Shown: positions 15,266 to 39,214 of the stretch, piece by piece
Numbering within the stretch: position 1 is the first letter of the stretch
How the letters are laid out: each line of letters opens with the position of its first letter
Origin: an uncultured Rhodospirillales bacterium
Lineage (GTDB): Bacteria > Pseudomonadota > Alphaproteobacteria > Rhodospirillales > UBA2165
Direction of reading: 5' to 3'
DNA length: 64,000 bases
Assembly (NCBI GenBank): GCA_905614355.1
Contig: CAJQSN010000014.1
Span: forward strand, 10,276 to 74,275
The notes under the pieces: model-generated
What the model was told of the DNA's origin: nothing
Seen by the model: the letters and a program-made list of their open reading frames with translations, nothing else
Database searches by the model: none
Program-made: the position numbers and the translations under genes

Positions 15266-16677
15266 ATGAACAATAAACTGCAAAAGAAAAAATCTGCTAG
15301 CCCAATCTGGGGGGGGGGCGTTTTGACGGCAGTCCATCGGAAATCATGGAACAAATTAATGCTTCTATTAATTTTGATAAAAGGTTGTATTCACAAGACA
15401 TAACTGCATCAAAAGCTCATGCCGCAATGCTTGTTAAACAAAAAATTATCTCCGCTAAGGATGGGAATGAAATTAAAGGGGGACTGGATCAAATCTTTAA
15501 TGAAATCGAAAACGGTTCATTCGAGTTTAAAACCACTCTTGAAGACATCCATATGAATATTGAATCAAGGCTTAAGGAAATAATTGGTGATGCGGCTGGA
15601 AAACTGCATACTGCTAGGTCAAGGAATGATCAAGTTGCGACAGATTTTAAACTTTGGGTCAGACAGGAACTAGATCAATTAGATAGTGCATTAAAAATGC
15701 TACAGGAAACTTTCATTAATCAGGCAGAGGACCACGCATCAACCATATTGCCGGGCTTTACTCATCTTCAATCAGCCCAACCCGTTACTCTTGGTCATCA
15801 TCTGCTCGCATACGTTGAGATGATCGGCCGGGATAGAGGTCGAATTAAAGATTGCCGAAGACGCTTAAATGAAAATCCACTAGGCTCTGGCGCTTTAGCT
15901 GGAACATCGTTTCCTATTGATCGAGATGCAACGACAATAGCCCTTGGTTTTGATCAACCTACGTCTAATTCATTAGATGCCGTGTCTGACCGCGACTTCG
16001 CTCTCGAATACCTATCATTGGCGTCAATTTTATCGGTTCACCTCTCTAGGCTAGCAGAAGAAATCGTCGTCTGGGCAAGCTCACCATTCTCTTTTATTAA
16101 TTTACCCGATTCTTTTTCAACCGGCAGTTCTATGCTTCCGCAAAAAAGAAATCCTGATGCAGCAGAACTAATACGTGCTAAAACAGGCCGAGTAATAGGT
16201 AATCTAACGAGCCTCCTCATTACAATGAAAGGTTTACCCTTAGCCTATAGCAAAGATATGCAAGAAGACAAAGAATCAGTCTTTGAGACGGCGGATACAT
16301 TGGCCCTAACGGTCAAGGCAATGACTGGGATGTTTGGAGAAATAACCTATAATATTGATAAAATGTTAGCTATGGCCAAAAATGCAAATTCCAACGCGAT
16401 CGATTTAGCAGACTGGTTAGTTAAAGAACTGGATAAACCATTCCGCGAGGCACATAGTATTAGTGGTAAACTGGTCAAACTAGCAGAAAAACAAAACATA
16501 TCTCTAGAAAACCTATCCCTAACCGACATGCGAAGAATAGAACCGGCTATCAATGAAGGTGTTTTTAACGTCCTTAATATTAATACTGCTTTAAACGCAC
16601 GAAGCAGTTTTGGTGCTACGGCACCAAAGAATGTTAGAAAAGCTTGCACTCAAGCGCGTCGCAAGTATCTTAAATAA
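15266..16677 (+). CDS. argH: argininosuccinate lyase; the 5' end is frame-disrupted inside a G10 tract (intact ORF only from 15346)
   Basis: ORF 15346..16677 has lyase-1 motifs ([30 protein letters not shown]). The conserved N-terminal WGGRF box is encoded upstream, but it is split between the frame of ATG 15266 ([18 protein letters not shown]) and the frame of the main ORF ([15 protein letters not shown]). Confidence 0.85.
15309..15318 (+). repeat. G10 homopolymer at the argH frame break
   Basis: Counted directly: ctGGGGGGGGGGcg. Confidence 0.95.
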
Positions 16678-26718: not shown

Positions 26719-26746
26719 ACTATAGCCACCTTACTAGACTATCGTA

Positions 26747-26998
26747 TCATTTATTATCTACTCGGTAACTAGGGATATATGTTTTTGTAATTTCACCGCC
26801 AGCCTTTCGACGGTCTTTAGCTTGAGCAACTGTTTCAGCCTCCCTAGCAATTTTTAAACCAAGCTTTCTATCAGTTGGATAAGGACCAAGAAAGTCATCT
26901 AGCCAAATAGCTATGGGCGCTAGGATAGGTTTTAACCAAGTAACATTAATCCCTAACCAACTTCCAACCTGATGCGTTATGGGACTATCCCACGTCAT
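26747..26998 (-). CDS. hypothetical protein (may be the downstream part of a stop-interrupted 110-codon frame)
   Basis: An 83-aa ORF of no recognised family. The same frame continues upstream across a single TAA into a 25-codon ORF carrying a CGRCVKVCP motif. Confidence 0.3.
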   Translation of the reverse strand: MTWDSPITHQVGSWLGINVTWLKPILAPIAIWLDDFLGPYPTDRKLGLKIAREAETVAQAKDRRKAGGEITKTYIPSYRVDNK

Positions 26999-27259
26999 AT
27001 CTTTTTATAATGGACAAACCTTGACACAACGACCGCAAGCTAAACCCTTAAGATTTGTTGCCCACTCAATAGTGAGTTTCATCTAAACCGTTGTTTTTGT
27101 TATTTTTTATTTTTACTATGTAAGTACTTTGTAAGTCTTTTCTCATTTTTAGTACATCTTCACATTTTCAAATCATCAACAAACACAATGATTACAGCAA
27201 AAAGCAGTTACAAAGTTTGTATGTAGTTTTTGCTACTAACTTATATGTCGAGCTCTTAA

Positions 27260-27960
27260 TTACTTCCTTTCGCTTAGGCATTCTATGCCAAGTTTAAAAT
27301 ACTCATTAGAATTTCCACATGCTATTAATCCAGCGGTATCTTTATTGAGAGAAGCCAACGCTTTTCTCCACATCAAAACCCTTTCTGCATATCCCTCCAA
27401 CCATTGAAAGTCCCATACATTATCTAATGCCACAACAAACCTAAGTAGGTTCTCATTCATTAAGTTAATCCATTTTTTCTGGAGATTATTGTCTTTATCA
27501 AATAAATTAATCCAACCTGTTTGGAATTTAACGTTTGTATCTTTATTTAGTATGTTATTTTGCGTTTCATTATCTGCATGAGATGTCATGAAATGGATAT
27601 TTTTGTGTTTTTTCTAGTATCAGCTTGGCCTCAGAAAATTCCACTTGACCCATATGAATCAATAAGAAATTACTTTCTGGGTGTCGAGTACTCAATTCTA
27701 ATAATTGACTGATAACTCTCTTCGAGTCCTCCTCATAATCATTTAACTCAACGTGCAAAATTACTGGTTTTTTATTCTTGAGGATAATATTAATAGTTCT
27801 AAGTATTTTTCAGATTTTAGATTAAGATTTATTCCTTTAAATTTAAGCCTCTTATGTTCATGAGGTGCGTATTGTACAATGACTTCTTGGAAGCCAACAT
27901 AATCGATTTTACGTTTTTTAGCTCCTCGCAATAAAACGTTTAATCGTTTTAAAGCTTTGT
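27260..27960 (-). pseudogene. decayed amidohydrolase-like gene (at least two frame breaks)
   Basis: Three consecutive minus-strand frames read ...YAPHEHKRLKFKGINL.., then ..PVILHVELNDYEE..LLIHMGQV..FHDIS, then ..RFVVALDNVWD...ACGNSNEYFKL. This resembles the order of motifs in TIM-barrel metal-dependent hydrolases. The surroundings are AT-rich. Confidence 0.4.
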
Positions 27961-28442
27961 CACGTGCTATCCAACTAAACTGGCAAAGCCTTTATAAAAT
28001 AATTAGGGCTAAAAAACTTCATCTTTGTAAAATCGTAAATATGACTAACCATAAGTCAGCATAATTAAACCCCAGGAACAAATATCATAAGCATGGATAG
28101 TAGAATACATAAACATAAATAGAAGTATTAAATCCTTGCCTAGCGGCGGTATGATTCAAAAAACTATAAAAAAAACATTTACTCGATAGAGAAATTCTCC
28201 CCATCGTTAATAATTATTACTATCAATTTATTGAAAATTTAAGTAAAAGTAAAATGAAGAGCTTGCATATAACATTATTTGAAATGATCAATCATATTGA
28301 TATAAAAGCTAAGTGGTATGCGTGAGAATCAACTTAAACTCTTGTTTCCATCACAAATACTGAGAAATAACGCTATGATTTTTAATCATCACTCACTAAT
28401 ATGAACTATAGTTCATTCAAAATTTAATAGACATATAGAATA

Positions 28443-28919: not shown

Positions 28920-28964
28920 AGTGTATTATAGCGCGAGAATTTTATTAAAATTGATATGAAAAAT

Positions 28965-29013
28965 TGGTGGCAGAGGGAGAGACTTAAACTCTCGATACCC
29001 GGGGTATGATGCC
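28965..29013 (-). repeat. diverged partial copy of the tRNA-Met 3' half (distal att-like remnant)
   Basis: TGGTGGCAGAGGGAGAGACTTAAACTCTCGATACCCGGGGTATGATGCC aligns by eye, with roughly 10 mismatches or indels, to the 3' 48 nt of the tRNA at 39138..39214. It is in the same orientation and retains the CAT anticodon-loop context. Confidence 0.6.
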
Positions 29014-29154
29014 ATATCTCTGCATAGTTTTTAGTTTTTCTTACCTTCTATAGCTTTGAAATTTCGTATTTTACAATATTTTATCATTCCTCGACCACAC
29101 CTTCAATTTCCTGTATAGTGGTAACTCAAAGTGAACTCACTATGGATTAAGTAG

Positions 29155-29691
29155 ATGAAACTTTCCAAGACTACAATTAAGACAAGCGGCAACGAGAAGG
29201 CCAATAATAAAGCTGATCTACTGTTAGATGATGAAACTCGTGGTTTTGGTATTAGGGTCTACCCGTCCGGTCGCAAGTCTTTCTTTGTGTATTACCTAAA
29301 TAGCTCAAAAACAAAGAAGCGTAATCACGTATTTCCTACACTCGGTCTTAGGAAACTAGCGGAAATTACCATTCGACAGGTTCAGAACATCCAGACTTCC
29401 ATTAAAAAGAAGCTATGCCCTTCAACAGCCAACCGAGTTACTAGATTGATTAAGCAATTATTCATTGTGGCAGATAAATGGTTCCTGATTGCTGAAAATC
29501 CCTCAGAACATTTAACAATGTTCCGTGAGCCAGCACCAAAAGATATTGTTCAATCGCCAGAAAATTACCGTAAGTTAATAGATGGTTATGACAAAGATGA
29601 TCACTTATTCTACTTAATGTACTTCTTTATAACGAGCGAGTGGAATTTGCGAGGTAAACCTTTGACCGCGCAGGGTCGACCTGTTATTTAG
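29155..29691 (+). pseudogene. tyrosine integrase (P4-like), N-terminal fragment only
   Basis: An arm-binding DUF4102-type N-terminus (LLDDETRGFGIRVYPSGRKSFFVYY) and part of the SAM-like core-binding domain. The frame ends where the catalytic domain should begin. Confidence 0.8.
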
Positions 29692-29735
29692 CAAATGGTC
29701 AAAAGGTTATTTGAAAATATGCAGGATTCTGCTTG

Positions 29736-30872
29736 ATGTACGAACCCACAAAACATCCAAGAAATAAGATCTTCACTTATTGGATTGATATTGTCGGCAC
29801 CTGCAATTTGAGATGTCCAACTTGTCCAACAGGTAATTTTTTAGATTCTGAATTTTCTGTTGGACGCAACCCGACCGGGTTTATGGATCAAGACCTTTAC
29901 AAAAAAATTCTTGAAAAGATAAAAAGCGATAACGTATCGGACCGAATTGAAATTCACCTGTATACTTGGGGGGAGCCATTGCTCCACCCAAAAGTAGCAG
30001 AGTTCGTGACTATGACTAAAAAAATGGGTTTTTTCTGTGGACTTTCCAGCAATCTGAATTTAGACAAGAATCTGAAGGAGGTTGTCAAAGCTGGCCCTGA
30101 CTTTTTCCGAATTTCGCTATCTGCATTTTATCAGGGCAACTACAAATTAACACATAAACGTGGTGATATTCGGATAGTTAAAAGTAACATGTACCGATTG
30201 AGAAATTTACTCGACCAAAACAAAAGCAATATAACGGTGCAGGTACTTTATCATGTTTACAAGCATAATGCGAGTGATGATCTTGCGATGATGATGAAAT
30301 TGTGTGAAGAATTGGAGTTTGATCTGGATCCTGTGTGGGCGTTTTACATGCCGTTAGAAAAGAGTTTGGATTACCTGAATGGAAAAGTTTCCGATGAGGA
30401 TAAAAAAACCATAAATATGCTCGCGATGGACCCAACCGATGTCTCGAAAGCGGCCCTACCCTACAGGGATGAAGACTGTAGTCTTCGAAAAACTCAAGTT
30501 ACGCTCAATATTGATGGGTCAGTTCAACTTTGTTGTGCCACCTTTGATCAAGCCTATGTCGTGGCCCCGAGTTTTATCGATACTCCTCATGCAGAATTAC
30601 AACGGCGGCGCTATTCAAATGACATGTGCGGACCTTGTATGGATAAAGGGCAACACATTTATTTCAGTTATGCCGTTGGTAAAAAACTAGATGATTTAGG
30701 CGAACAAAATTTAAGTAAAAAAGATTCCAAATTTATTTTTAAACAATTTTCAAAACCCAGTTTGGTTCTCAGAAGTAGCGAGAATGCCGACCCAATTGTG
30801 CTCCCACGTGCAGCAAAGAAAAAACAAGGTCTCAGTTTGTATCGTTTCAAGAATAAACTTCTTGGCAGGTGA
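29736..30872 (+). CDS. radical SAM protein with a partial SPASM/twitch-type C-terminal Cys motif
   Basis: CNLRCPTCP (CX3CX2C) at residues about 24-31, a GEPLL glycine-rich motif, and a C-terminal CX12GX4C (CSLRKTQVTLNIDGSVQLC) followed by CGPC. Confidence 0.85.
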   Translation: MYEPTKHPRNKIFTYWIDIVGTCNLRCPTCPTGNFLDSEFSVGRNPTGFMDQDLYKKILEKIKSDNVSDRIEIHLYTWGEPLLHPKVAEFVTMTKKMGFFCGLSSNLNLDKNLKEVVKAGPDFFRISLSAFYQGNYKLTHKRGDIRIVKSNMYRLRNLLDQNKSNITVQVLYHVYKHNASDDLAMMMKLCEELEFDLDPVWAFYMPLEKSLDYLNGKVSDEDKKTINMLAMDPTDVSKAALPYRDEDCSLRKTQVTLNIDGSVQLCCATFDQAYVVAPSFIDTPHAELQRRRYSNDMCGPCMDKGQHIYFSYAVGKKLDDLGEQNLSKKDSKFIFKQFSKPSLVLRSSENADPIVLPRAAKKKQGLSLYRFKNKLLGR

Positions 30873-31137
30873 CTTCTGGGATCATTTGTTTGACGCTATC
30901 GGTTACATGTCTGCCTTTGGCTATTAGGGGTCTCTTGCCGCATCTTTGGAGTAGTATTCAGCCTTTGGCGTAATTCATAACACACCTCATTTGAAAAAAA
31001 ATAGTAAAATATTTAAAGAAAGCCGGGCCTAAATGAACTAAATTGACTGGGAATTGAGTTATTTAATTCAATGAACAGTTAGTATATTATTACCTCTACA
31101 TTGCCGTTATTTTAATAATATTTTACAGTAGAATTTC

Positions 31138-32184
31138 ATGAAAAAATTTATATTTGCCGCCCTGTCCATAATCCTTGCATCCGTTATTTCGGTGTTTGCC
31201 ATGGAATATGTCGTCCGAATGGCTATTCCCGCATACGACCCTTCCGGTCATGTGAAATTTGTTGTCGGCAAAGCCTCTACAATGGAACAAGTCGGCTACC
31301 CCTTAGATCAAATTGGTCGCCCAGATTCAGTACAGCGACAAATAAAAAATACTGGGGATTATGATGTCCTTATTCGATTTAACAAATATGGGTTTAGAGA
31401 CACCAAAGATCTGTCCGAATCAACGCCCAAAGATTTTTTTGTACTGGGAGATTCATTAAGCTTTGGGTGGGGAGTAGACGCAGATAAAAACCTTTCCGAA
31501 CAATTGGGAAAAATTACAAAAATACAATTTTATAACATCGGCATTCCAGGTGACTTAGTGTTTCAAAAAACCCTCATAGATTACGCTAAAAAAAAAGGTG
31601 CATCTATTAAGAACCTGATCATTCTATTTAGCAATGAAGTTCGTTTAAAAAATTATGAAAAAAAAACCGTGATTAAGGCCTCTATGGAAACGGGTTCTAG
31701 TCTTATGAGCGTGAAAATGTATTTGATGTCTCATTCTGCATTATATTTTCTTGTCACATCCTTTATCCATCGCACTCCAACTCTCAAACAAATTGCTGTC
31801 GATTCAGGCTTTCTCATCCCGAATTTAGAAGGCTTTCAAGAGCGCGAATATGATCCCTTAGCCGTCAAATCATCATCTCGCAAACTCGCGAATATTGCCA
31901 AAGATTATGCATCGTTAGTCGTCCTATCTCCCTCTCGTGGGATATGGTCCGGCACTAAAAGGGAATCTGTGAAGAAAAATCATACTGAGCTCATTCGAAG
32001 CCTAGAGAACTTGGGCGTAAAGGTATTAGACTTGATCCCCGCGTTTGAAAAAGACGGTGCCCCGCTACAAAAATTTTTCAAAAATGATGGCCATTGGAAA
32101 GCTGAGACGCATGTCTTAGTTGCAAAACTGGTGGCCCAATATATAAAAAATTATCCTGCTATCTTTCCGCTCAGCAAGCCTTAA
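31138..32184 (+). CDS. membrane-anchored SGNH/GDSL hydrolase-family protein
   Basis: An N-terminal TM segment (FIFAALSIILASVISVFA), block I FFVLGDSLSFGWG and block V NDGHW. It is a paralog of the next gene (RFNKYGFRD versus RTNKNGMRG). Confidence 0.75.
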   Translation: MKKFIFAALSIILASVISVFAMEYVVRMAIPAYDPSGHVKFVVGKASTMEQVGYPLDQIGRPDSVQRQIKNTGDYDVLIRFNKYGFRDTKDLSESTPKDFFVLGDSLSFGWGVDADKNLSEQLGKITKIQFYNIGIPGDLVFQKTLIDYAKKKGASIKNLIILFSNEVRLKNYEKKTVIKASMETGSSLMSVKMYLMSHSALYFLVTSFIHRTPTLKQIAVDSGFLIPNLEGFQEREYDPLAVKSSSRKLANIAKDYASLVVLSPSRGIWSGTKRESVKKNHTELIRSLENLGVKVLDLIPAFEKDGAPLQKFFKNDGHWKAETHVLVAKLVAQYIKNYPAIFPLSKP

Positions 32185-32281
32185 CCTGCTAGCTAAAATT
32201 GAAACATGATGTTAACAATAATTTACTATGATTTCAGAGCGTCTTTTACAGGCCTCATTTTTTTCATAGAGTGTGATTACG

Positions 32282-33252
32282 ATGAATGAAAATACAACAA
32301 AGTCGATAGTTTTTAGCATAATAGTCACGGCAATAACGCTGGTATTCTGCTTGTTTGCAGCCGAGGTTTTACTGCGTGTAAAAAACAGCGATGGGAAAAA
32401 TTATCATATTGAGATGTGGAAATATTCACGTGATCTCAAGCAAGCATCACAAAACCCGATTCTAGGTCACGAGCATCTCCCCAGCAGCCAAGCCAAATTG
32501 CAAAATGTAATTATTCGCACCAACAAAAATGGAATGCGCGGGGCAGCAATTACGCCTGTTAAAAGTGGCCAGCGTAGAATTTTATTACTCGGCTCCTCGG
32601 CGACACTGGGGTGGGGAGTCGAAGAAGAAGAGACGATGTCCTCTCGTCTACAACTTAGCCTTGGAGAAGGGGCCGTTGTGATGAATGCTGGTATCGGTAA
32701 TTATAATACCAAGCGATATGTTGAACTATTTTTAACCAAGAACAGGAATGTTACCCCAACAGATATTATTGTGAATTACTACCTCAATGATGCTGAAGTC
32801 CTTAAACCTGGAGGGGGGGGGTCCTCATTCGTAATAGTGAGCTTGCGGTTACTTTTTGGATTTTATTTAACCGTTTCTTCTCTAAAACCGGTGAGGATGT
32901 CCTCCTCAATCACTACAAAGCGATTTATGATCCTGAATTCAAAGGTTTGATAGAGATGAAACAATCGCTCAAGAACCTGGCCGATTACTCTAAACGTCAC
33001 AACATAAACCTTATCCTTATGATGATGCCTGAGGTTCATGATCTAAAAAATTATAAATATCAATTTGCACATGATATTATGGCTAAGACTGCTAAGACAT
33101 TAGGTTATAAATTTGTGGATGGGTTGCCCGCATTGCAGGATGTTAAATCAAGCCAGGATCTTTGGGCCATGCCAGGAGATCCACATCCAAACGCCCTGGC
33201 TCACAATCTATTCGCTGATGCTGTCTATCTTTTTTTGATGAATAAGAAATAA
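32282..33252 (+). pseudogene. membrane-anchored SGNH hydrolase paralog, split by a frame break in a G9 tract
   Basis: The upstream frame has an N-terminal TM segment and blocks I-III (LLLGSSATLGWG, NAGIGNY, NYYLNDA). The downstream frame is open from the G tract and carries block V (GDPHPNALAH). One extra G would fuse them into about 327 aa. Confidence 0.75.
32813..32821 (+). repeat. G9 homopolymer at the SGNH frame break
   Basis: Counted directly: ctggaGGGGGGGGGtcc. Confidence 0.95.
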
Positions 33253-33261
33253 CTCAGGTAA

Positions 33262-34668
33262 GTGCTTTTTACCTCCAACATATTTCTCTATGCATTTTTG
33301 CCAGCAGTGGTAGCTCTGTTTTTTGTTCTGGCGCGAGCGGATCACAAAACACGGATTGCAATTTTATTCTTAATCTTAAGTTCCTTTATTTTCTACGGCT
33401 ATAAAAACCCCGCAAACATCACATTGTTGATGGGGTCTATTTTGGGCAATTTTGCACTCGCCTCTCAAATTCGTCGCCACCAGCAAAAAGCAGCTATTTT
33501 TATACTCGGGATTCTCTTCAATATTGGAATACTTGGCTACTTCAAATACACCAATTTTCTATTGGAGAATTTTAGTTTAATTTCTGGCGACAGTTATACC
33601 CCTCTTTCTATTGCTTTACCGCTGGCAATCTCATTTTACACTTTCCAACAAATTGCTTTTCTCGCCGATACCAAGAATGGAGAGATTGGGGCCGTTTCCT
33701 TTCGAGATTACATGTTATTTGTCACCTTCTTCCCTCAACTCATCATTGGACCGATTGTCCATCATAAAGAGATGATGCCTCAATTTTCTATGGCAAATTT
33801 TGGGCGTTTTAATTGGCAAAATTTTCAAACTGGATTTTGCTACTTAATGAGCGGGGTGATAAAGAAAGTTTTTCTATCTGATGCATGCGCACTGGTCGTT
33901 AACTCCGTGCATGGTGACATTGGCAATGGGGTGAGCATAGGGTTTGCTGATGCATGGGTTACCGCATTTGCGTTTTCACTCCAGATATATTTTGATTTCT
34001 CTGGTTATACTGATATGGCCATTGGAATTGCTAAAATGCTTGGCATTGACCTGCCTTTTAATTTCAACTCGCCCTATAAGGCTAGGAATGTCGGCGAATT
34101 TTGGCGACGCTGGCACATTACATTATCCCGATGGCTACGTGATTACCTCTATATACCATTAGGAGGCAATCAGTCGGGGTTTAAACGTACTGCGATTAAT
34201 GCAGTTATTGTTTTTTTACTCGGCGGCCTCTGGCATGGTGCTGCATGGACCTTTATCGCCTGGGGATTGGTGCAAGGCATTGGGGTTGTATGGGCTCATT
34301 TGTTGAAAACATTGAAAATATGCCTTCCTACATCAATAGCCATTTTATTTACATTTATTTTCATCACTCTCTCGTGGGTATTATTCCGCGCTCAAAATTT
34401 GGAAAATGCGTTAGACCTTTATAAAGTGATGAGCGGCGTGCAAGGTTTTGACTTAACCTTGAGAGAGAGCATTAACCTACCAGTTATGGCAATCGGTGTA
34501 GTCATAATTTTCGGTTTGCCCAATTCACATACCCTAGTTCCATGGCTTCAAACACGTATAGCAAACCTTCCAACAGCGCCCGTTGTGGTCGTCATGGTAG
34601 TCTCTTGGTTAGCCCTCGCAGCTTTCGATCTCGATAGCTCGGCAGCTTTTATCTATTTTGATTTCTAA
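33262..34668 (+). CDS. MBOAT-family membrane-bound O-acyltransferase (AlgI/DltB/PatA-like)
   Basis: A typical N-terminus (MLFTSNIFLYAFLP), a polytopic membrane protein, FWRRWHITLS..WLRDYLYIPLGG and the catalytic-His region GGLWHGAAW. The start is GTG. Confidence 0.9.
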   Translation: MLFTSNIFLYAFLPAVVALFFVLARADHKTRIAILFLILSSFIFYGYKNPANITLLMGSILGNFALASQIRRHQQKAAIFILGILFNIGILGYFKYTNFLLENFSLISGDSYTPLSIALPLAISFYTFQQIAFLADTKNGEIGAVSFRDYMLFVTFFPQLIIGPIVHHKEMMPQFSMANFGRFNWQNFQTGFCYLMSGVIKKVFLSDACALVVNSVHGDIGNGVSIGFADAWVTAFAFSLQIYFDFSGYTDMAIGIAKMLGIDLPFNFNSPYKARNVGEFWRRWHITLSRWLRDYLYIPLGGNQSGFKRTAINAVIVFLLGGLWHGAAWTFIAWGLVQGIGVVWAHLLKTLKICLPTSIAILFTFIFITLSWVLFRAQNLENALDLYKVMSGVQGFDLTLRESINLPVMAIGVVIIFGLPNSHTLVPWLQTRIANLPTAPVVVVMVVSWLALAAFDLDSSAAFIYFDF

Positions 34669-34824
34669 TTGTATAATAAGGTCGAATAGAAGAAGGCCTC
34701 AATCAACCGCTAATCGCTCAAAAAAAGGAATTTAATGTTGGCAGATGGATGGAAATCGAGTAAGTCAACTTAAAGTTCTGGCGCCCTTCAGCCTAACTCT
34801 GTTAGCCAACTGTGAGAAATATCA

Positions 34825-34980
34825 ATGATGATATCTTTTTTTATAGAATTTTTTGAATTTTTAAAAGCTCGAAAGAAATTTTGGTTAATGCCAATTATGG
34901 TGGTCATGTTTTTTCTTGGTGGGCTGATTTTACTGACCCAGGGCACTGCTGTCGCTCCGTTCATCTATACAATATTCTGA
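34825..34980 (+). CDS. DUF5989 / SxtK-like small membrane protein (51 aa)
   Basis: Hand translation gives MMISFFIEFFEFLKARKKFWLMPIMVVMFFLGGLILLTQGTAVAPFIYTIF. This closely matches the family pattern I recall (..LRxRKKxWLxPI......LGGLIVLTQGSAVAPFIYTLF). It is absent from the ORF track (under 60 aa). Confidence 0.7.
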   Translation: MMISFFIEFFEFLKARKKFWLMPIMVVMFFLGGLILLTQGTAVAPFIYTIF

Positions 34981-35001
34981 GTTTGCTGGGCTAGTGTAGA
35001 G

Positions 35002-35439
35002 GTGAAAATGGTAATAGATAATTCCCACGAGAAAATAGGTCGATCCGCTGAGATTAAAAGTGGTTCTAATCGTGCCTTTGGCGTTGTCTTTGCTATAGTC
35101 TTTTTATTGGTTGGCCTATTTCCACTTATAAAGGATGACCCTATACGTCCATGGGCTGTCATAACCGCCATAACTTTACTCGTAATTTCCCTTACCGTCC
35201 CAAGTATTTTATCACCGTTTAATTGGATCTGGTTTAAGTTTGGGCTCCTTCTCCACAGAATTATCTCCCCGGTCATAATGGGCATATTATTTTATCTAAT
35301 AGTAACCCCAATGGCCCTTATTATGGGCATTTTAGGCAAACGCCCATTATCCCTCTCATTTGACAAAACGGCTAAGTCCTATTGGATCCATCGAGATCCT
35401 CCCGGCCCGGAGCCAAAATCAATGGAACGTCAATTTTGA
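35002..35439 (+). CDS. SxtJ-family membrane protein
   Basis: 145 aa with three predicted TM segments. The SNRAFGVVFAIVFLLVG start, the size, and the position between DUF5989 and a carbamoyltransferase match the SxtJ-like family. The start is GTG 35002 or ATG 35008. Confidence 0.65.
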   Translation: MKMVIDNSHEKIGRSAEIKSGSNRAFGVVFAIVFLLVGLFPLIKDDPIRPWAVITAITLLVISLTVPSILSPFNWIWFKFGLLLHRIISPVIMGILFYLIVTPMALIMGILGKRPLSLSFDKTAKSYWIHRDPPGPEPKSMERQF

Positions 35440-35536
35440 AAAATAGGATTAAATGGGTGCTCTTTTTAAAAAAGGTAATTTTCATTGATCTACTTTAACT
35501 ACATTTATATTTCTATTTTTTTAGAGAGAGTTTAAT

Positions 35537-37372
35537 TTGCGTATTCTTGGAATTTCAGCCTTTTATCATGATAGTGCTGCTACGCTTATTGAAGATGGTA
35601 GAATCATTGCTGCAGCTCAGGAAGAGCGTTTTTCGCGAATAAAACAAGATGCCAACTTTCCAATAAGAGCTATCGAATATTGTCTGGACGAATCTGGCGG
35701 CGCTCTCACAAACATCGATTATGTTGCATTCTATGATAAGCCTTTTCTGAAATTTGAAAGGCTCCTGGAGACTTACCTTTCCTTTGCTCCCAAAGGATTC
35801 GAATCTTTCAACAAGGCCATGCCAATTTGGCTGAAAGAAAAGCTTTTTCAAAAAGATATGCTCCGAAAAGAGTTTAGAAAAGTCGATGCTAATTTTGACT
35901 GGCAAAACAAACTCCTTTTCACTGAACACCATCAAAGCCACGCCGCCAGTGCTTTTTTTCCCTCCCCATTTGAAGACGCTGTCATCTTAACCATGGATGG
36001 GGTTGGGGAATGGGCAACCACTTCAGTGGCAATAGGTTCAGCCAATAAGCTAAACGTCACCAAAGAGCTTCACTTTCCTCATTCTCTAGGCTTACTTTAT
36101 TCTGCCTTCACCTACTATACGGGTTTTAGAGTGAATTCAGGAGAGTACAAAGTCATGGGCCTTGCACCTTACGGTGAGCCCGTTTACGCCCAGAAAATTT
36201 TAAATAATATCATTGATCTCAAAGAGGATGGTAGTTTCAGATTAGATCAATCCTATTTCGATTATTGCACGGGCCTGCGTATGACTAATGAAAAATTTGA
36301 TCATTTATTTGGTGGACCAGCTCGTAAATCAGAAGACTTACTGACAGACCGTGAAATGAATTTGGCCGCTTCTATTCAAGCTGTAACAGAAGAGGTAGTT
36401 CTGCGCTTAACCCGATCCTTAGCGAAAGAAACAAATAGCAAAAATCTCTGCCTTGCTGGAGGTGTTGCACTCAACTGTGTGGCCAATGGCAAAGTATTAA
36501 GAGATAACGCATTTGAAAATATATGGATTCAACCGGCAGCAGGCGATGCGGGGGGCGCGCTTGGTGCGGCTTTAGCAGCCTATTATGTATATCAAAATCA
36601 GCCTCGCGAACGGACGGAATCTAGAGATACCATGCAAGGGGCGTATCTTGGCCCATCTTTTTCCGATGAGGATATTGTTGAAAGGCTAGAGAAAATTGGC
36701 GCGATCGTCGAGCGCCACAGCCTTGACGAGATGACAAACATTGCCGCCCAAGCTCTGGCAGATGGAAAAGCTGTCGGCTGGTTCCAAGATCGGATGGAAT
36801 TTGGTCCAAGGGCTTTAGGAAACCGTTCAATATTGGGTGATCCTCGATCATCAACAATGCAGAAAACACTCAACCTTAAAATTAAATACCGAGAATCCTT
36901 TAGACCTTTCGCTCCCTCGGTCAGGCGTGAAGATGTCGCTGACTGGTTCGATATGGATACAGATAGTCCCTATATGCTGCTAGTCGCCGATGTAGCAAAG
37001 AAGCGCCAAATTAAAATGAGCGAAGCAGATCAAAAGCTATTCGGCATTGAAAAATTAAATGTTAAGCGCTCGGAAATACCTGCGGTCACTCATGTCGATT
37101 ACTCAGCGCGGATTCAAACAATAGAAGCTGAAATAAATCCGAAATACCATACCCTTATCACCCGGTTTAAAGAACTGACCGACTGTCCTGTTGTCGCTAA
37201 TACCAGCTTCAACGTCCGAGGGGAGCCAATCGTTTGCGCTCCGGAAGATGCCTTCTACTGCCTGATGGGTACAGAGCTAGATATGTTGGCTATTGGAAAT
37301 TGTATCCTCAAAAAAGAATCCCAGAACCCAGAATTAAAGCTCGACTATAAGGACGCATTTGAACTGGATTAA
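35537..37372 (+). CDS. carbamoyltransferase (NodU/CmcH/TobZ/SxtI family)
   Basis: N-terminal MRILGISAFYHDSAA, EHHQSHAASAF, GGVALNC and a C-terminal domain with NTSFNVRGEPIV. The start is TTG. Confidence 0.9.
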   Translation: MRILGISAFYHDSAATLIEDGRIIAAAQEERFSRIKQDANFPIRAIEYCLDESGGALTNIDYVAFYDKPFLKFERLLETYLSFAPKGFESFNKAMPIWLKEKLFQKDMLRKEFRKVDANFDWQNKLLFTEHHQSHAASAFFPSPFEDAVILTMDGVGEWATTSVAIGSANKLNVTKELHFPHSLGLLYSAFTYYTGFRVNSGEYKVMGLAPYGEPVYAQKILNNIIDLKEDGSFRLDQSYFDYCTGLRMTNEKFDHLFGGPARKSEDLLTDREMNLAASIQAVTEEVVLRLTRSLAKETNSKNLCLAGGVALNCVANGKVLRDNAFENIWIQPAAGDAGGALGAALAAYYVYQNQPRERTESRDTMQGAYLGPSFSDEDIVERLEKIGAIVERHSLDEMTNIAAQALADGKAVGWFQDRMEFGPRALGNRSILGDPRSSTMQKTLNLKIKYRESFRPFAPSVRREDVADWFDMDTDSPYMLLVADVAKKRQIKMSEADQKLFGIEKLNVKRSEIPAVTHVDYSARIQTIEAEINPKYHTLITRFKELTDCPVVANTSFNVRGEPIVCAPEDAFYCLMGTELDMLAIGNCILKKESQNPELKLDYKDAFELD

Positions 37373-37663: not shown

Positions 37664-37975
37664 AGAGAATGCCAGCGAAACCGAACATCGCCATCAGATG
37701 GAAAATCGTTCCGCAGAGCTGGGTTAGAGCCAGAAATTATTACTCACCACGTCATGTGACATACCGCTATCACTAAACTAGTCAAAGCTGGCGTCGATCT
37801 TCCGACTATTCAACGGATCAGTGGACACAAGACATTGGCAATGGTTCTCCGATACGACCATGTTCACGGCTCTCACGTCAATCAAGCCATTTTCTGTATT
37901 AGACTTAGCCTACCAGACCATAACTGGAACACCATTTCTCAAAAGCGTGGTAATTTGAAGGTGATAGGTGAATAA
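37664..37975 (+). pseudogene. tyrosine integrase, C-terminal fragment with an in-frame TGA
   Basis: The frame reads ..FRRAGLEPEIITHHVM*HTAITKLVKAGVDLPTIQRISGHKTLAMVLRYDHV.. This is the H-x-x-R box (the Arg codon is replaced by TGA at 37757..37759), GH, and the catalytic-Tyr RY box of tyrosine recombinases. Confidence 0.75.
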
Positions 37976-38055
37976 CCAACTGACATGACCAAACCAGAAT
38001 TACACACACGTCGGACACATACCGGTTCCAAACATAGCTAAGTCATTGAAAAGAA

Positions 38056-38107
38056 TGGTAGTGACGGAGAGACTTGAACTCCCGACACCCGGATTATTAT
38101 TCCGACG
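38056..38107 (-). repeat. partial direct copy of the tRNA-Met 3' half (att-type repeat)
   Basis: TGGTAGTGACGGAGAGACTTGAACTCCCGACACCCGGATTATTATTCCGACG matches 39138..39189 with about 5 mismatches over 52 nt, in the same orientation. Confidence 0.85.
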
Positions 38108-38284: not shown

Positions 38285-38479
38285 ATTTCCACCAACAGGA
38301 TATGTAGCTCCGCTATCAACTTAAGATAAAAAAACCTTTTGAGTGAATTCTTCTAGGTGGATATTTTTTCGATCCAGTAAAGTATAAAAATTAAATTTTT
38401 TTTGGTTGTTGACCTCGATCATTACCATTTTAATGGTATATTAACGCCGAAGTTATCAATATCAACAAAGGAGATTCAA

Positions 38480-39010
38480 ATGTTTTCGAATGTAACAAAC
38501 AAACAATTCTATTTTTTCATATTTCTATTCTCCGTGGCAACTATTCTTTTTCAATCTTCTGCTTTTGCAGCAGGTGACCATAAAATTTCTCTTATGGATC
38601 CGATATGGGATGGTAAAAAGATACCAAGTGGAATGCAATGCTCTAGGCAAGGGGGGAAAAATCCTCATACACCGAAACTTAAAGTTACTAATCTACCAAA
38701 AGGAACCTCATATCTTCGCATGGTCATTACTGACGAAAGTTACGGGGGTGAAGGATTTCACGGTATTTTTAAAATAGAGGTTCCGACAGGTGCGTCAGAA
38801 ATCGTAATTCCGAGAATATATGAACAAACAGAACAATTGCCGGCAAGTATTGAACTAGAAAAAGGGAATGGAAGTCCTGACGGTGGAAAAGGTCATTATC
38901 TTCCACCGTGCTCTGGAAATGGCAATCACAACTACTTTGCTGAAATCCTCCCTTATAATGATAGTGACGAAAAACTAAAAGAAAATTATATCGACTTCGG
39001 CAGATATTAA
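38480..39010 (+). CDS. secreted hypothetical protein (weak PEBP/YbhB-like resemblance)
   Basis: An AGGAG SD lies 7 nt upstream of ATG 38480. A signal peptide (FYFFIFLFSVATILFQSSAFA/AG) is present. GGKNPHTPKLKV.NLPKGTSYLRMVITD loosely recalls the PEBP motif G.N.SP.L.W..P.GT......DPD. A terminator follows the gene. Confidence 0.6.
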   Translation: MFSNVTNKQFYFFIFLFSVATILFQSSAFAAGDHKISLMDPIWDGKKIPSGMQCSRQGGKNPHTPKLKVTNLPKGTSYLRMVITDESYGGEGFHGIFKIEVPTGASEIVIPRIYEQTEQLPASIELEKGNGSPDGGKGHYLPPCSGNGNHNYFAEILPYNDSDEKLKENYIDFGRY

Positions 39011-39089: not shown

Positions 39090-39137
39090 ATAGGGAGGTT
39101 TTACGCAGACCCATCCCAGTTTTAGGGGTGAAAAGTA

Positions 39138-39214
39138 TGGTAGCGGAGGAGAGACTTGAACTCCCGACACCCGGATTATGATTCCGATGCTCTAACCAGC
39201 TGAGCTACTCCGCC
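39138..39214 (-). tRNA. tRNA-Met (anticodon CAT; elongator Met versus Ile2/lysidine not distinguishable by eye)
   Basis: The reverse complement is GGCGGAGTAGCTCAGCTGGTTAGAGCATCGGAATCATAATCCGGGTGTCGGGAGTTCAAGTCTCTCCTCCGCTACCA. It folds as a 77-nt cloverleaf with a 7-bp acceptor stem, a GCTC/GAGC D stem, an ATCATAA anticodon loop, a GTTCAAGT T loop and an encoded CCA. Confidence 0.9.

Follow-up and report, generated by a model that had tools for sequence, protein, structure and literature searches.

Seven same-strand genes lie between the remnants of two integrases in a tRNA-Met island, as the original prediction had it. They occupy a small part of the window, i.e., the whole 64-kb stretch of DNA analyzed here (Table 1). 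In order, they encode a radical SAM enzyme (rSAM), two SGNH proteins, an MBOAT, a DUF5989 micro-protein, an SxtJ-family membrane protein, and an O-carbamoyltransferase. HMM searches support these assignments; for SGNH-1 the matches are weak, and the predicted fold is SGNH.

Table 1. Features of the tRNA-Met island and its cargo (window coordinates).
Feature	Position	Strand	Basis or remark
tRNA-Met 3′ half, degenerate copy; outer att-like repeat, left border of the island	28957–29015		68% identical to 38047–38105
Integrase A remnant, limited to the N-terminal arm-binding and core-binding domains	29155–29691	+	Arm-DNA-bind_3, Phage_int_M
Radical SAM enzyme, one Twitch/partial-SPASM auxiliary cluster	29733–30872	+	PF04055, 2.4e-12
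Mosaic junction, rSAM piece/six-gene block	30869–30925		L105 homology stops at 30868, L104 homology starts at 30925
SGNH-1, N-terminally anchored, ALGX-like D-x-H-W	31138–32184	+	Weak ALGX/GDSL matches; predicted structure
SGNH-2, anchored SGNH paralog, split in two ORFs by a frameshift	32273–33252	+	ORFs; intact L100 ortholog
G9 homopolymer at the SGNH-2 frameshift	32813–32821	+	G10 or G7 restores the frame
MBOAT, AlgI/PatA class, catalytic His325	33262–34668	+	MBOAT domain, 5.8e-31
FIYFDF, fused acyl-shuttle hexapeptide, MBOAT C-terminus	34648–34665	+	FxYxxF motif
DUF5989 (SxtK-like) micro-protein, 51 residues	34825–34980	+	DUF5989, 4.4e-23
FIYTIF hexapeptide, DUF5989 C-terminus	34960–34977	+	Matches FxYxxF shuttle motif
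SxtJ-family membrane protein, four TM, basic C-terminal tail ending in invariant QF	35002–35439	+	SxtJ, 5.9e-9
O-carbamoyltransferase, NodU/TobZ/NovN type	35537–37372	+	Carbam_trans_N 2e-106, Carbam_trans_C 3e-72
Integrase B remnant, C-terminal catalytic end	37682–37975	+	In-frame stop at 37757–37759
tRNA-Met 3′ half, second copy; inner att-like repeat	38047–38105		Reference copy for repeat comparison
tRNA-Met (CAT), integration target	39138–39214	−	tRNA prediction

The tRNA's own copy of the repeat (39129–39187) is 92% identical to the inner att-like copy. The two integrase remnants belong to different families. Remnant A displays 50–65% identity to residues ~126–227 of integrases of 377–388 aa, and remnant B 91% identity to residues 308–401 of P0312. 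The island does not stand out by its GC content, suggesting that it has long been resident. As had been predicted, the cargo is limited to decoration functions: no glycosyltransferase, flippase, export, or other glycan-synthesis gene is found in the island, nor in the rest of the window.

The unit that recurs elsewhere comprises six genes, namely those for SGNH-1, SGNH-2, MBOAT, DUF5989, SxtJ, and the carbamoyltransferase. A locus from another sample, L100, matches window positions 32044–37104 at 88% DNA identity with gene order unchanged. The seven-gene set was not found together outside this genome in neighborhood searches, while the six-gene block was, at L100. A set of SGNH-1-like, SGNH-2-like, and MBOAT genes is also found within a full polysaccharide cluster (L101). 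Every gene shows a dN/dS of 0.07–0.33 against copies that are ~12% divergent, indicating purifying selection.

Both SGNH proteins are anchored, as had been proposed for the paralogs, but the split of SGNH-2 at the G9 run had gone unnoticed. SGNH-1 has a TM segment at residues 1–30 and a predicted SGNH fold (pLDDT 93), with residues G104-D105-S106, D317, H319, and W320 invariant. It is a predicted periplasmic acyl transferase, and its fold neighbors are mostly esterases. SGNH-2 and its orthologs retain a GSS block I and the TM anchor, as well as a D-P-H close to the C-terminus. The L100 ortholog is intact at 326 aa, and the two halves in the window have dN/dS values of 0.16 and 0.11. The only other G/C run of at least 7 in the window, a G10 at 15309–15318, disrupts argH too. 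Thus, the SGNH-2 frameshift is probably a sequencing error, the gene being intact in the cell.

Among solved structures, the closest relative of the MBOAT is DltB (E = 1.8e-25), whose FWHG His aligns with His325. The C-terminal hexapeptide of the MBOAT belongs to a published tyrosine acyl-shuttle motif, FxYxxF, which functions in other envelope-acylation systems (PMC12148441). This ending is found in 72 of 76 complete MBOAT homologs. The MBOAT–SGNH logic of the original prediction is thus borne out by the fused tail and the catalytic His.

A new observation is that the MBOAT and DUF5989 both terminate in the FxYxxF shuttle motif. DUF5989 consists of an RKK cluster, one TM helix, and an exposed C-terminal tail. 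The motif is present in all 15 DUF5989 homologs of the examined loci and is terminal in 120 of 150 family representatives; a near-invariant PFIY(T/A)(I/L)F at the C-terminus is the most conserved feature of the family. Endings of the FxYxxF type occur in only 2 of 947 window segments, and outside DUF5989 the motif is confined to MBOATs. The DUF5989 family may already be catalogued in the original acyl-shuttle paper. By the positive-inside rule, the DUF5989 tyrosine is periplasmic. No homology between the window protein and DltX is detectable, as searches of Pfam return only its own family and searches of the PDB return no match. The link to DltX therefore rests on architecture, motif, and neighbors.

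The carbamoyltransferase has no TM segment and is soluble and predicted to be cytoplasmic. Its relatives in structure databases are NovN (4e-96), GdmN, and TobZ. The subfamily always travels with SxtJ and DUF5989: the triad is kept at all nine genome loci where it is visible and also at plasmid loci. An anchored SGNH protein lies beside SxtJ/DUF5989 at 8 of 15 independent loci (3 of 10 genome and 5 of 5 plasmid loci). The other seven lack an adjacent SGNH, several of these being in housekeeping contexts. The triad-associated SGNH proteins fall into several divergent subfamilies, none close to SGNH-1 or SGNH-2, and are TM-anchored, like DltD and PatB. DUF5989 also occurs without the carbamoyltransferase, with MBOAT and SGNH at L101 and with SxtJ and SGNH in Planktothrix. 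At another locus (L014), an AT3-SGNH acyltransferase takes the MBOAT's place beside the triad. Related modules are found in clusters for polysaccharide or capsule (L101, L012, L013, Leisingera), and lipid- or metabolite-type genes are among the neighbors in Planktothrix and Methylosinus. Dividing the block into an MBOAT/SGNH pair and a separate triad, as originally proposed, overlooked what links them, i.e., the DUF5989 shuttle motif and SGNH as the triad's usual fourth partner.

On balance we favor a reading in which the block encodes two tyrosine-shuttle-to-SGNH decoration systems, for acetyl and probably carbamoyl groups, acting on an envelope acceptor made elsewhere in the genome. In the same reading, the island of this marine alphaproteobacterium would be decayed, composite, and tRNA-Met-targeted, the remnants of two different integrases marking at least two integration events. 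In the first system, proposed from homology with PatA/PatB and AlgI/J/X, the MBOAT would charge the tyrosine of its own FIYFDF tail, on the periplasmic face, with an acyl group that is probably acetyl derived from acetyl-CoA. The acyl group would next move to the catalytic Ser of an anchored SGNH protein, which would pass it to an exported polymer. The second system would be the widespread quartet of carbamoyltransferase, SxtJ, DUF5989, and SGNH. The carbamoyltransferase would dock on SxtJ and activate a carbamoyl group. DUF5989, acting as a free-standing DltX-like shuttle, would receive the group on its invariant C-terminal tyrosine. From there an SGNH transferase would take it over and O-carbamoylate an acceptor outside the cytoplasm, either that of the first system or a different one. 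We infer this carbamoyl relay with less certainty than the first system. The DUF5989 tyrosine and the carbamoyltransferase are predicted to lie on opposite sides of the membrane, and the SxtJ alignment has no invariant His and no other obvious catalytic residue, which leaves the passage of the carbamoyl group across the membrane without explanation.

A conventional cytoplasmic carbamoyltransferase, acting on a soluble or lipid-linked acceptor, is unlikely but has to be taken seriously. SxtJ and DUF5989 would then only tether or regulate the enzyme at the membrane, the DUF5989 tail would be structural, and the SGNH proteins would be partners of the MBOAT only, or would act as esterases taking off carbamoyl or acetyl groups. 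All characterized relatives, TobZ, NovN, and GdmN, carbamoylate a substrate hydroxyl directly, and SxtL is annotated or proposed as a decarbamoylase (PMC2679770). The esterase neighbors of SGNH-1, the lack of an obvious catalytic residue in SxtJ, and the triad loci without an adjacent SGNH point the same way. However, an exact match to the published shuttle motif at the extreme C-terminus of DUF5989 is then unaccounted for, as are the occurrence of DUF5989 without the carbamoyltransferase and the DltD/PatB-like anchors of the adjacent SGNH proteins.

The original prediction treated all seven genes as one co-adapted cassette of the seroconversion type, in which rSAM and the acyl and carbamoyl systems would act together on one glycan. 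The genes are intact or nearly so, on one strand, and bounded by att-like repeats; rSAM itself shows purifying selection, with a dN/dS of 0.10 relative to L105, and its relatives lie in glycan clusters. Its predicted motifs, CX3CX2C, CX12GX4C, and CX2C, show no variation among 40 homologs (C24/C28/C31 and C249/G262/C267/C299/C302), although the Pfam SPASM model finds no match on the protein. The rSAM orthologs (58–75% identity; nine loci and a tenth place without DNA) all lie in dTDP-sugar/GT2 clusters, and none of the six block genes occurs there. The partner that they keep is a GT2 directly downstream, which is not found in the window. In a near relative of the island, L104, the tRNA-half repeat directly precedes SGNH-1 with no rSAM between, whereas rSAM is the sole gene that L105 shares with the window; the two homologies meet at the mosaic junction. 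For these reasons rSAM is judged, from the comparison of loci, to be a separately acquired passenger of the nucleotide-sugar type, outside the six-gene block. The analogy to phage seroconversion finds no backing either, as no relatives were found in viral contigs. A single seven-gene cassette is thus improbable.

Comparison with known enzymes places rSAM near sugar chemistry. Its best fold matches are DesII and BlsE, with TM-scores of only ~0.5 and 14–16% identity, and its best sequence match is BtrN. Like the Twitch enzymes, it has a single auxiliary Cys cluster. DesII, BlsE, and BtrN act on (nucleotide-)sugars, and the rSAM orthologs adjoin dTDP-sugar genes. In the island, the usual GT2 and isomerase neighbors of these orthologs have been lost.

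It is quite improbable that the block tailors, by carbamoylation or acylation, a small secreted metabolite rather than an envelope polymer. The carbamoyltransferase's best solved relatives are antibiotic-tailoring enzymes, the quartet is also found in the saxitoxin cluster, and lipid- or metabolite-type genes occur in the contexts mentioned above. Against this, core biosynthetic genes are absent from the island and the window, AlgI/PatA-class MBOATs with a fused shuttle and anchored SGNH partners act on polymers (PMC12148441), and related modules are part of clusters for polysaccharide or capsule. That the cargo is inert, decaying DNA, as the integrase remnants, the SGNH-2 frameshift, and the long residence might suggest, is highly improbable given purifying selection on every gene, intact catalytic residues, and a frameshift that is probably technical.

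Among known systems, the closest to the MBOAT half of the block are PatA/PatB (peptidoglycan O-acetylation) and AlgI/AlgJ/AlgX (alginate), MBOAT–SGNH systems with a fused tyrosine acyl shuttle (PMC12148441). Shared features are an MBOAT with a conserved His and a C-terminal FxYxxF, and an N-terminally anchored SGNH protein with Ser/Asp/His. The presence of two SGNH-type proteins per MBOAT recalls AlgJ plus AlgX, but the sequence match of SGNH-1 to AlgX is marginal (E = 0.04), and AlgX and AlgJ are not in its top 50 fold matches. Unlike those systems, the block is island-borne, has no polymer-synthesis genes nearby, and is joined to a carbamoyltransferase module.

DltB/DltX/DltD, of teichoic-acid D-alanylation, offers the parallel for DUF5989: a single-pass micro-protein of ~50 residues that ends in FxYxxF and whose gene adjoins those for a membrane partner and an anchored SGNH-type transferase (PMC12148441). 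In contrast to Dlt, DltA and DltC are absent here, the organisms are Gram-negative, and DUF5989 at most loci travels with SxtJ and the carbamoyltransferase, not with an MBOAT.

The carbamoyltransferase resembles TobZ, NovN, GdmN, and NodU in having full-length Carbam_trans_N and Carbam_trans_C domains with strong matches, but it scores 143 bits against a NodU equivalog cut-off of 1000 bits. The cyanobacterial saxitoxin cluster, in which sxtL, a GDSL protein, is listed beside sxtIJK (PMC2679770), likewise brings together a carbamoyltransferase, SxtJ, a DUF5989-type micro-protein, and a GDSL/SGNH protein of ~426 aa. The window differs in lacking the core sxt biosynthetic genes and in its gene order, and the block also has an MBOAT and one more SGNH protein. 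SxtJ, SxtK, and SxtL have only putative functions (PMC2885083, PMC2679770). If the favored reading is correct, the long-unexplained SxtJ and SxtK genes would gain a testable role.

The island in the window carries seven plus-strand genes, located as in the original prediction, and HMM searches confirmed every domain assignment made there. As one cassette the seven genes fail. What stands is a six-gene block, running from SGNH-1 to the carbamoyltransferase (CT), on a decayed composite island. In keeping with this, the seven-gene set was not found together outside this genome, but the six-gene block was, in the same order, at the related locus L100. Pfam searches of the small island ORFs and most of the larger window ORFs returned only housekeeping genes besides the block, the remaining right-side ORFs reading as the Suf operon and neighboring housekeeping genes. 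As no glycan-synthesis or export gene was found among these ORFs, the label "decoration-only" stands.

Features of the island and its borders (window coordinates)
Feature	Coordinates	Strand	Basis or remark
tRNA-Met 3′-half repeat, degenerate	28957-29015		outer copy
Integrase remnant A, N-terminal	29155-29691		arm-domain integrase type
Radical SAM (Radical_SAM)	29733-30872	+	HMM
SGNH-1, N-terminally anchored	31138-32184	+	HMM
SGNH-2, N-terminally anchored	32273-33252	+	HMM
MBOAT	33262-34668	+	HMM, PF03062 5.8e-31
DUF5989	34825-34980	+	HMM
SxtJ	35002-35439	+	HMM
CT, full-length NodU/TobZ-type	35537-37372	+	HMM, Carbam_trans_N 2.3e-106, Carbam_trans_C 3.2e-72
Integrase remnant B, C-terminal	37682-37975		P0312-like type
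tRNA-Met 3′-half repeat	38047-38105		inner copy
tRNA-Met	39138-39214	-	island border

The island setting was likewise upheld: a border tRNA-Met, direct repeats of its 3′ half, and integrase remnants are all present. The two remnants are of different kinds. The N-terminal remnant matches arm-domain integrases of 377–388 aa at 50–65%, whereas between their C-termini and the second remnant the match is only ~32%. The latter instead shows 91% identity to the end of P0312, an integrase of another type with 401 aa, the N-terminus of which has no match to remnant A. A single integrase split by the cassette is thus ruled out, and the sequence comparison points to two integrase genes and at least two integration events. 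Since only remnants of two different integrases are left, the island is probably immobile. Its cargo varies among relatives, as a comparison of locus L104 with the window indicates. The GC content of the block is 0.41 vs 0.40 for the core, and a promoter and terminator scan gave the same counts as shuffled sequences. No contig spanning the empty site was found among relatives; the sister contig L106 stops short of the site. A phage-borne module was also considered and rejected, as no CT relative was found in viral contigs.

Two further stretches adjoin the island. Immediately to its left is a second variable spot, window 26719–28442, with 1.7 kb of low-GC DNA (0.32) and small ORFs lacking family matches; it is missing from L106, where the PEP-mutase-like gene adjoins DUF6505. 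On the other side, a single gene for a PEBP-like protein (38402–39010, GC 0.34) occupies the 1 kb that separates the inner tRNA-half repeat from tRNA-Met. The protein begins with a hydrophobic segment, and the stretch looks like a separate mini-island.

The gene that does not belong to the block is that of the radical SAM enzyme (rSAM). Its orthologs, at 58–75% identity, were found at nine loci and at one further place for which there is no DNA. All belong to clusters of dTDP-sugar or O-antigen-like type, and none is accompanied by an MBOAT, a CT, or an SGNH-1/2-type protein. Two relatives of the island mark the seam. At L104, where SGNH-1 is 84% identical, the tRNA-half repeat is followed by ~190 nt and then by the SGNH-1 upstream region, with both the integrase remnant and rSAM missing in between. 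At L105, where rSAM is 81% identical, the match to the window is confined to 29615–30868. As for the enzyme itself, the predicted cysteine motifs (CX3CX2C, CX12GX4C, and CX2C) proved invariant in 40 homologs. Pfam SPASM was not matched; the four conserved auxiliary Cys (CX12GX4C...CX2C) are consistent with a single auxiliary cluster of the kind found in Twitch enzymes. A predicted model (pLDDT 89.5) has DesII and BlsE as its nearest fold matches, with anSME and BtrN also matched, and BtrN is the best match in sequence. Based on the ortholog clusters, the DesII/BlsE fold, and the BtrN match, rSAM is probably a nucleotide-sugar enzyme that lost its usual partners in the island. A GT2 lies within two genes downstream of rSAM in every one of the closest relatives (73–75%); no GT2 remnant was found 3′ of the window gene. 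The ortholog loci (L001–L009; e.g., L007 5960–12911) hold a conserved, uncharacterised sugar unit, which in the closest relatives has the order dTDP-sugar isomerase, rSAM, GT2, and to which several loci add a second rSAM/SPASM protein, a Methyltransf_13/14 C-methyltransferase, and a TylF-type methyltransferase. Many members of the rSAM family are fused to TPR repeats.

The six-gene block itself recurs. L100 has 88% DNA identity to window 32044–37104 and encodes, in order, the end of SGNH-1, SGNH-2, MBOAT, DUF5989, SxtJ, and CT; dN/dS is 0.07–0.33 for all genes. Distant SGNH-1 relatives (42–44%) are again partnered with an SGNH-2-type protein, and the two types are always found together. At L101, an SGNH-1-like protein, an SGNH-2-type protein, and an MBOAT lie inside a full polysaccharide cluster. 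A metagenome scan with the MBOAT as query gave relatives of only 33–47%, none with a CT beside it.

In the assembly, SGNH-2 consists of two ORFs, with a frameshift at a run of nine G (32813–32821). L100, which comes from another sample, has one base more at this run and an intact SGNH-2 of 326 aa. The window has only one other G/C run of at least 7, ten G at 15309–15318, and this run splits an otherwise intact argH (argininosuccinate lyase) exactly at the conserved WGGRF start, so that the parts on either side (window 15309–15346) are in different frames, the second being ORF 15346–16677. The argH break is probably a homopolymer error of the assembly. Given that argH, too, is broken at the one other long G run, and that both halves of SGNH-2 have low dN/dS against L100 (0.11–0.16), such an error is probably the most economical account of the SGNH-2 frameshift as well. 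The same two observations make phase variation or true pseudogenisation of SGNH-2 less likely.

The MBOAT/SGNH half of the block is the more familiar. An FxYxxF motif at the very C-terminus serves as an acyl shuttle, carried either by a micro-protein, DltX, or by MBOATs to which it is fused, as in PatA. The motif Tyr accepts the acyl group and then hands it to the Ser of an SGNH partner; non-Dlt pathways do without a DltX-type micro-protein (PMC12148441). The island MBOAT ends in FIYFDF, and 72 of 76 complete MBOAT homologs have an FxYxxF end. In alignment, its His325 (within LWHG) falls on the catalytic His of DltB (within FWHG). Both SGNH proteins have TM anchors. SGNH-1 has an invariant GDS and D-x-H-W and a predicted SGNH fold (pLDDT 93); SGNH-2 has GSS and D-P-H. 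With a catalytic His and shuttle tail on the MBOAT and an adjacent anchored SGNH partner bearing a Ser/Asp/His triad, this half is assigned by its sequence motifs to the PatAB/AlgIJX class. By homology, and with good confidence, the MBOAT would acylate the Tyr of its own tail, probably with acetyl, and the group would then be transferred by an anchored SGNH protein to an exported polymer. Matching SGNH-1 or SGNH-2 to either the MBOAT or DUF5989 by similarity failed, as the SGNH proteins found with CT, SxtJ, and DUF5989 elsewhere are too divergent and SGNH-1 and SGNH-2 are inseparable.

The other half is a triad of adjacent genes: CT, SxtJ, and DUF5989. The CT is full length, with Carbam_trans_N and Carbam_trans_C, and matches NovN (4e-96). 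It is not NodU, scoring 143 bits against the cut-off of 1000 of the NodU equivalog NF041651. Saxitoxin clusters have the same CT-SxtJ-DUF5989 adjacency, but Pfam found no core sxt biosynthetic genes in the island or window, and the block is not a toxin cluster. In saxitoxin clusters, sxtI, sxtJ, sxtK, and sxtL (a GDSL lipase) are listed consecutively, and J and K are called uncharacterised (PMC2679770, PMC2885083). The CT half is a widespread sxtIJKL-type module, the function of which is so far uncharacterised.

Ten genome loci have a CT 64–78% identical to that of the island. SxtJ and DUF5989 are kept wherever the contig allows, and none has an MBOAT. In three (L014, L018, and L019), a sensitive HMM search and Pfam identified an SGNH protein with a TM anchor immediately next to the triad; ORFs of ~430 aa upstream of SxtJ in five others (L010–L013 and L017) were rejected as SGNH candidates, being RsmB or an unrelated protein. 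Each of the five plasmid loci examined (S. meliloti pSymB, Methylosinus, Rhodobacteraceae SC52, Leisingera, and Planktothrix) likewise has an anchored SGNH protein beside SxtJ/DUF5989. Across these loci, the triad contexts range from capsule clusters to housekeeping loci.

Several of these neighborhoods deserve description. In the Stappiaceae MAG (L014 2–11839), an AT3-SGNH acyltransferase fusion takes the place held by the MBOAT in the window, accompanied by another two SGNH proteins, a PglD-like acetyltransferase that carries a lipoyl domain, and E1 alpha/beta subunits. Here a different acyl-donor system lies beside the same triad. Planktothrix agardhii plasmid p1 (L111 7007–8846) has SxtJ, DUF5989, and SGNH with no adjacent CT; the neighbors are a sterol-desaturase-family protein, a methyltransferase, and an amidase. 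On the plasmid of Leisingera sp. S132 (L112 1–4790, with L109), a further gene encoding a CT C-terminal domain comes after the quartet of triad and SGNH protein, which sits within a capsule-type cluster (YjbH/YjbF, ManC, and flippase genes). In Methylosinus sp. C49 plasmid pMSC49c (L108 5362–11424), SGNH-SxtJ-DUF5989-CT is immediately preceded by genes for an AMP-binding enzyme and for a 79 aa product that matches no family; the two resemble a DltA/DltC-style activating pair.

SxtJ is a four-TM protein in which S-x-R-x-FG and N-x-x-W-x-x-x-G are invariant; the alignment shows neither an invariant His nor another obvious candidate for a catalytic residue. Its homologs end in an invariant QF following a conserved SYW..R basic tail, and this end may be a docking motif.

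The DUF5989 micro-protein of the window has 51 aa, with an N-terminal KARKK cluster, one hydrophobic segment (residues 17–45), and a short tail. The positive-inside rule alone suggests an N-in/C-out topology. The protein ends in FIYTIF, and all 15 DUF5989 homologs of the loci end in PFIY(T/A)(I/L)F. The family comprises 2,600 clusters at 50% identity; in a sample of 150 representatives, 120 have an exact FxYxxF end, and among those 120, P-7, F-6, Y-4, and F-1 are invariant. Out of 947 stop-to-stop segments in the window, only the MBOAT and DUF5989 end in FxYxxF, and among 4,367 ORFs from all loci, the end is confined to DUF5989 members and long ORFs, nearly all of MBOAT length.

With its RKK cluster, single TM helix, and short FxYxxF tail, the protein has the layout of DltX. 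No link in sequence was found: at E up to 10, the window protein matches DUF5989 alone, with no PDB chain matched, and the L101 protein gives two extra matches at chance level, neither of them DltX. Since no homology is detectable, DUF5989 is not placed in the DltX family; by analogy, our claim is that it would work like DltX. It is encoded with MBOAT and SGNH in the window, L100, and L101, and at L101 a true DUF5989 (Pfam 1.4e-15) lies beside these two with both CT and SxtJ missing. Elsewhere, it is found with SxtJ, with or without CT, usually with an SGNH protein, and with no MBOAT. The order DUF5989 then SxtJ occurs in the window (34825–35439) and L100 (2787–3398), where DUF5989 is directly 3′ of the MBOAT, and is reversed in 13 other loci.

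Our tentative proposal, which we consider more apt to fail than to hold, is that DUF5989/SxtK is a free-standing Tyr shuttle for carbamoyl, loaded by CT/SxtJ and serving an extracytoplasmic acceptor through SGNH. The steps would be as follows. The cytoplasmic CT would dock on SxtJ and load carbamoyl onto the C-terminal Tyr of DUF5989; the anchored SGNH protein would take the group onto its own Ser and pass it to the acceptor. Gene content, motifs, conservation, and neighborhoods are what the data show directly; we have moderate-to-low confidence that CT, SxtJ, DUF5989, and SGNH form such a relay, with the DUF5989 Tyr as carrier. Its weak point is topology, as the Tyr is predicted to be periplasmic whereas the CT is cytoplasmic. 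Serine hydrolases are known to accept carbamoyl from aryl carbamates, and the Tyr-to-Ser step is therefore chemically plausible. A search of the accessible literature found no published link of the shuttle to carbamoyl transfer or SxtK.

O-acetyl and O-carbamoyl groups on surface polymers alter phage adsorption, antigenicity, and resistance to lytic enzymes. It is thus plausible that a portable decoration-only block drives surface diversity in abundant marine bacteria. The main value of the locus is the lead offered by the shuttle motif. DUF5989 members and SxtJ have been called uncharacterised since saxitoxin clusters were described in 2008–2010. That the acyl-shuttle motif is the most conserved feature of DUF5989, and an anchored SGNH protein a recurrent neighbor, yields a specific hypothesis that is open to testing, and in a tractable organism, since the quartet is present on S. 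meliloti pSymB. If true, the carbamoyl relay would give sxtJ, sxtK, and sxtL a joint role in group transfer, in place of the labels "unknown, unknown, decarbamoylase". The Tyr-shuttle principle would then no longer be limited to MBOAT and AT3 systems, and envelope decoration would gain a third extracytoplasmic route besides these two, the first for carbamoyl.
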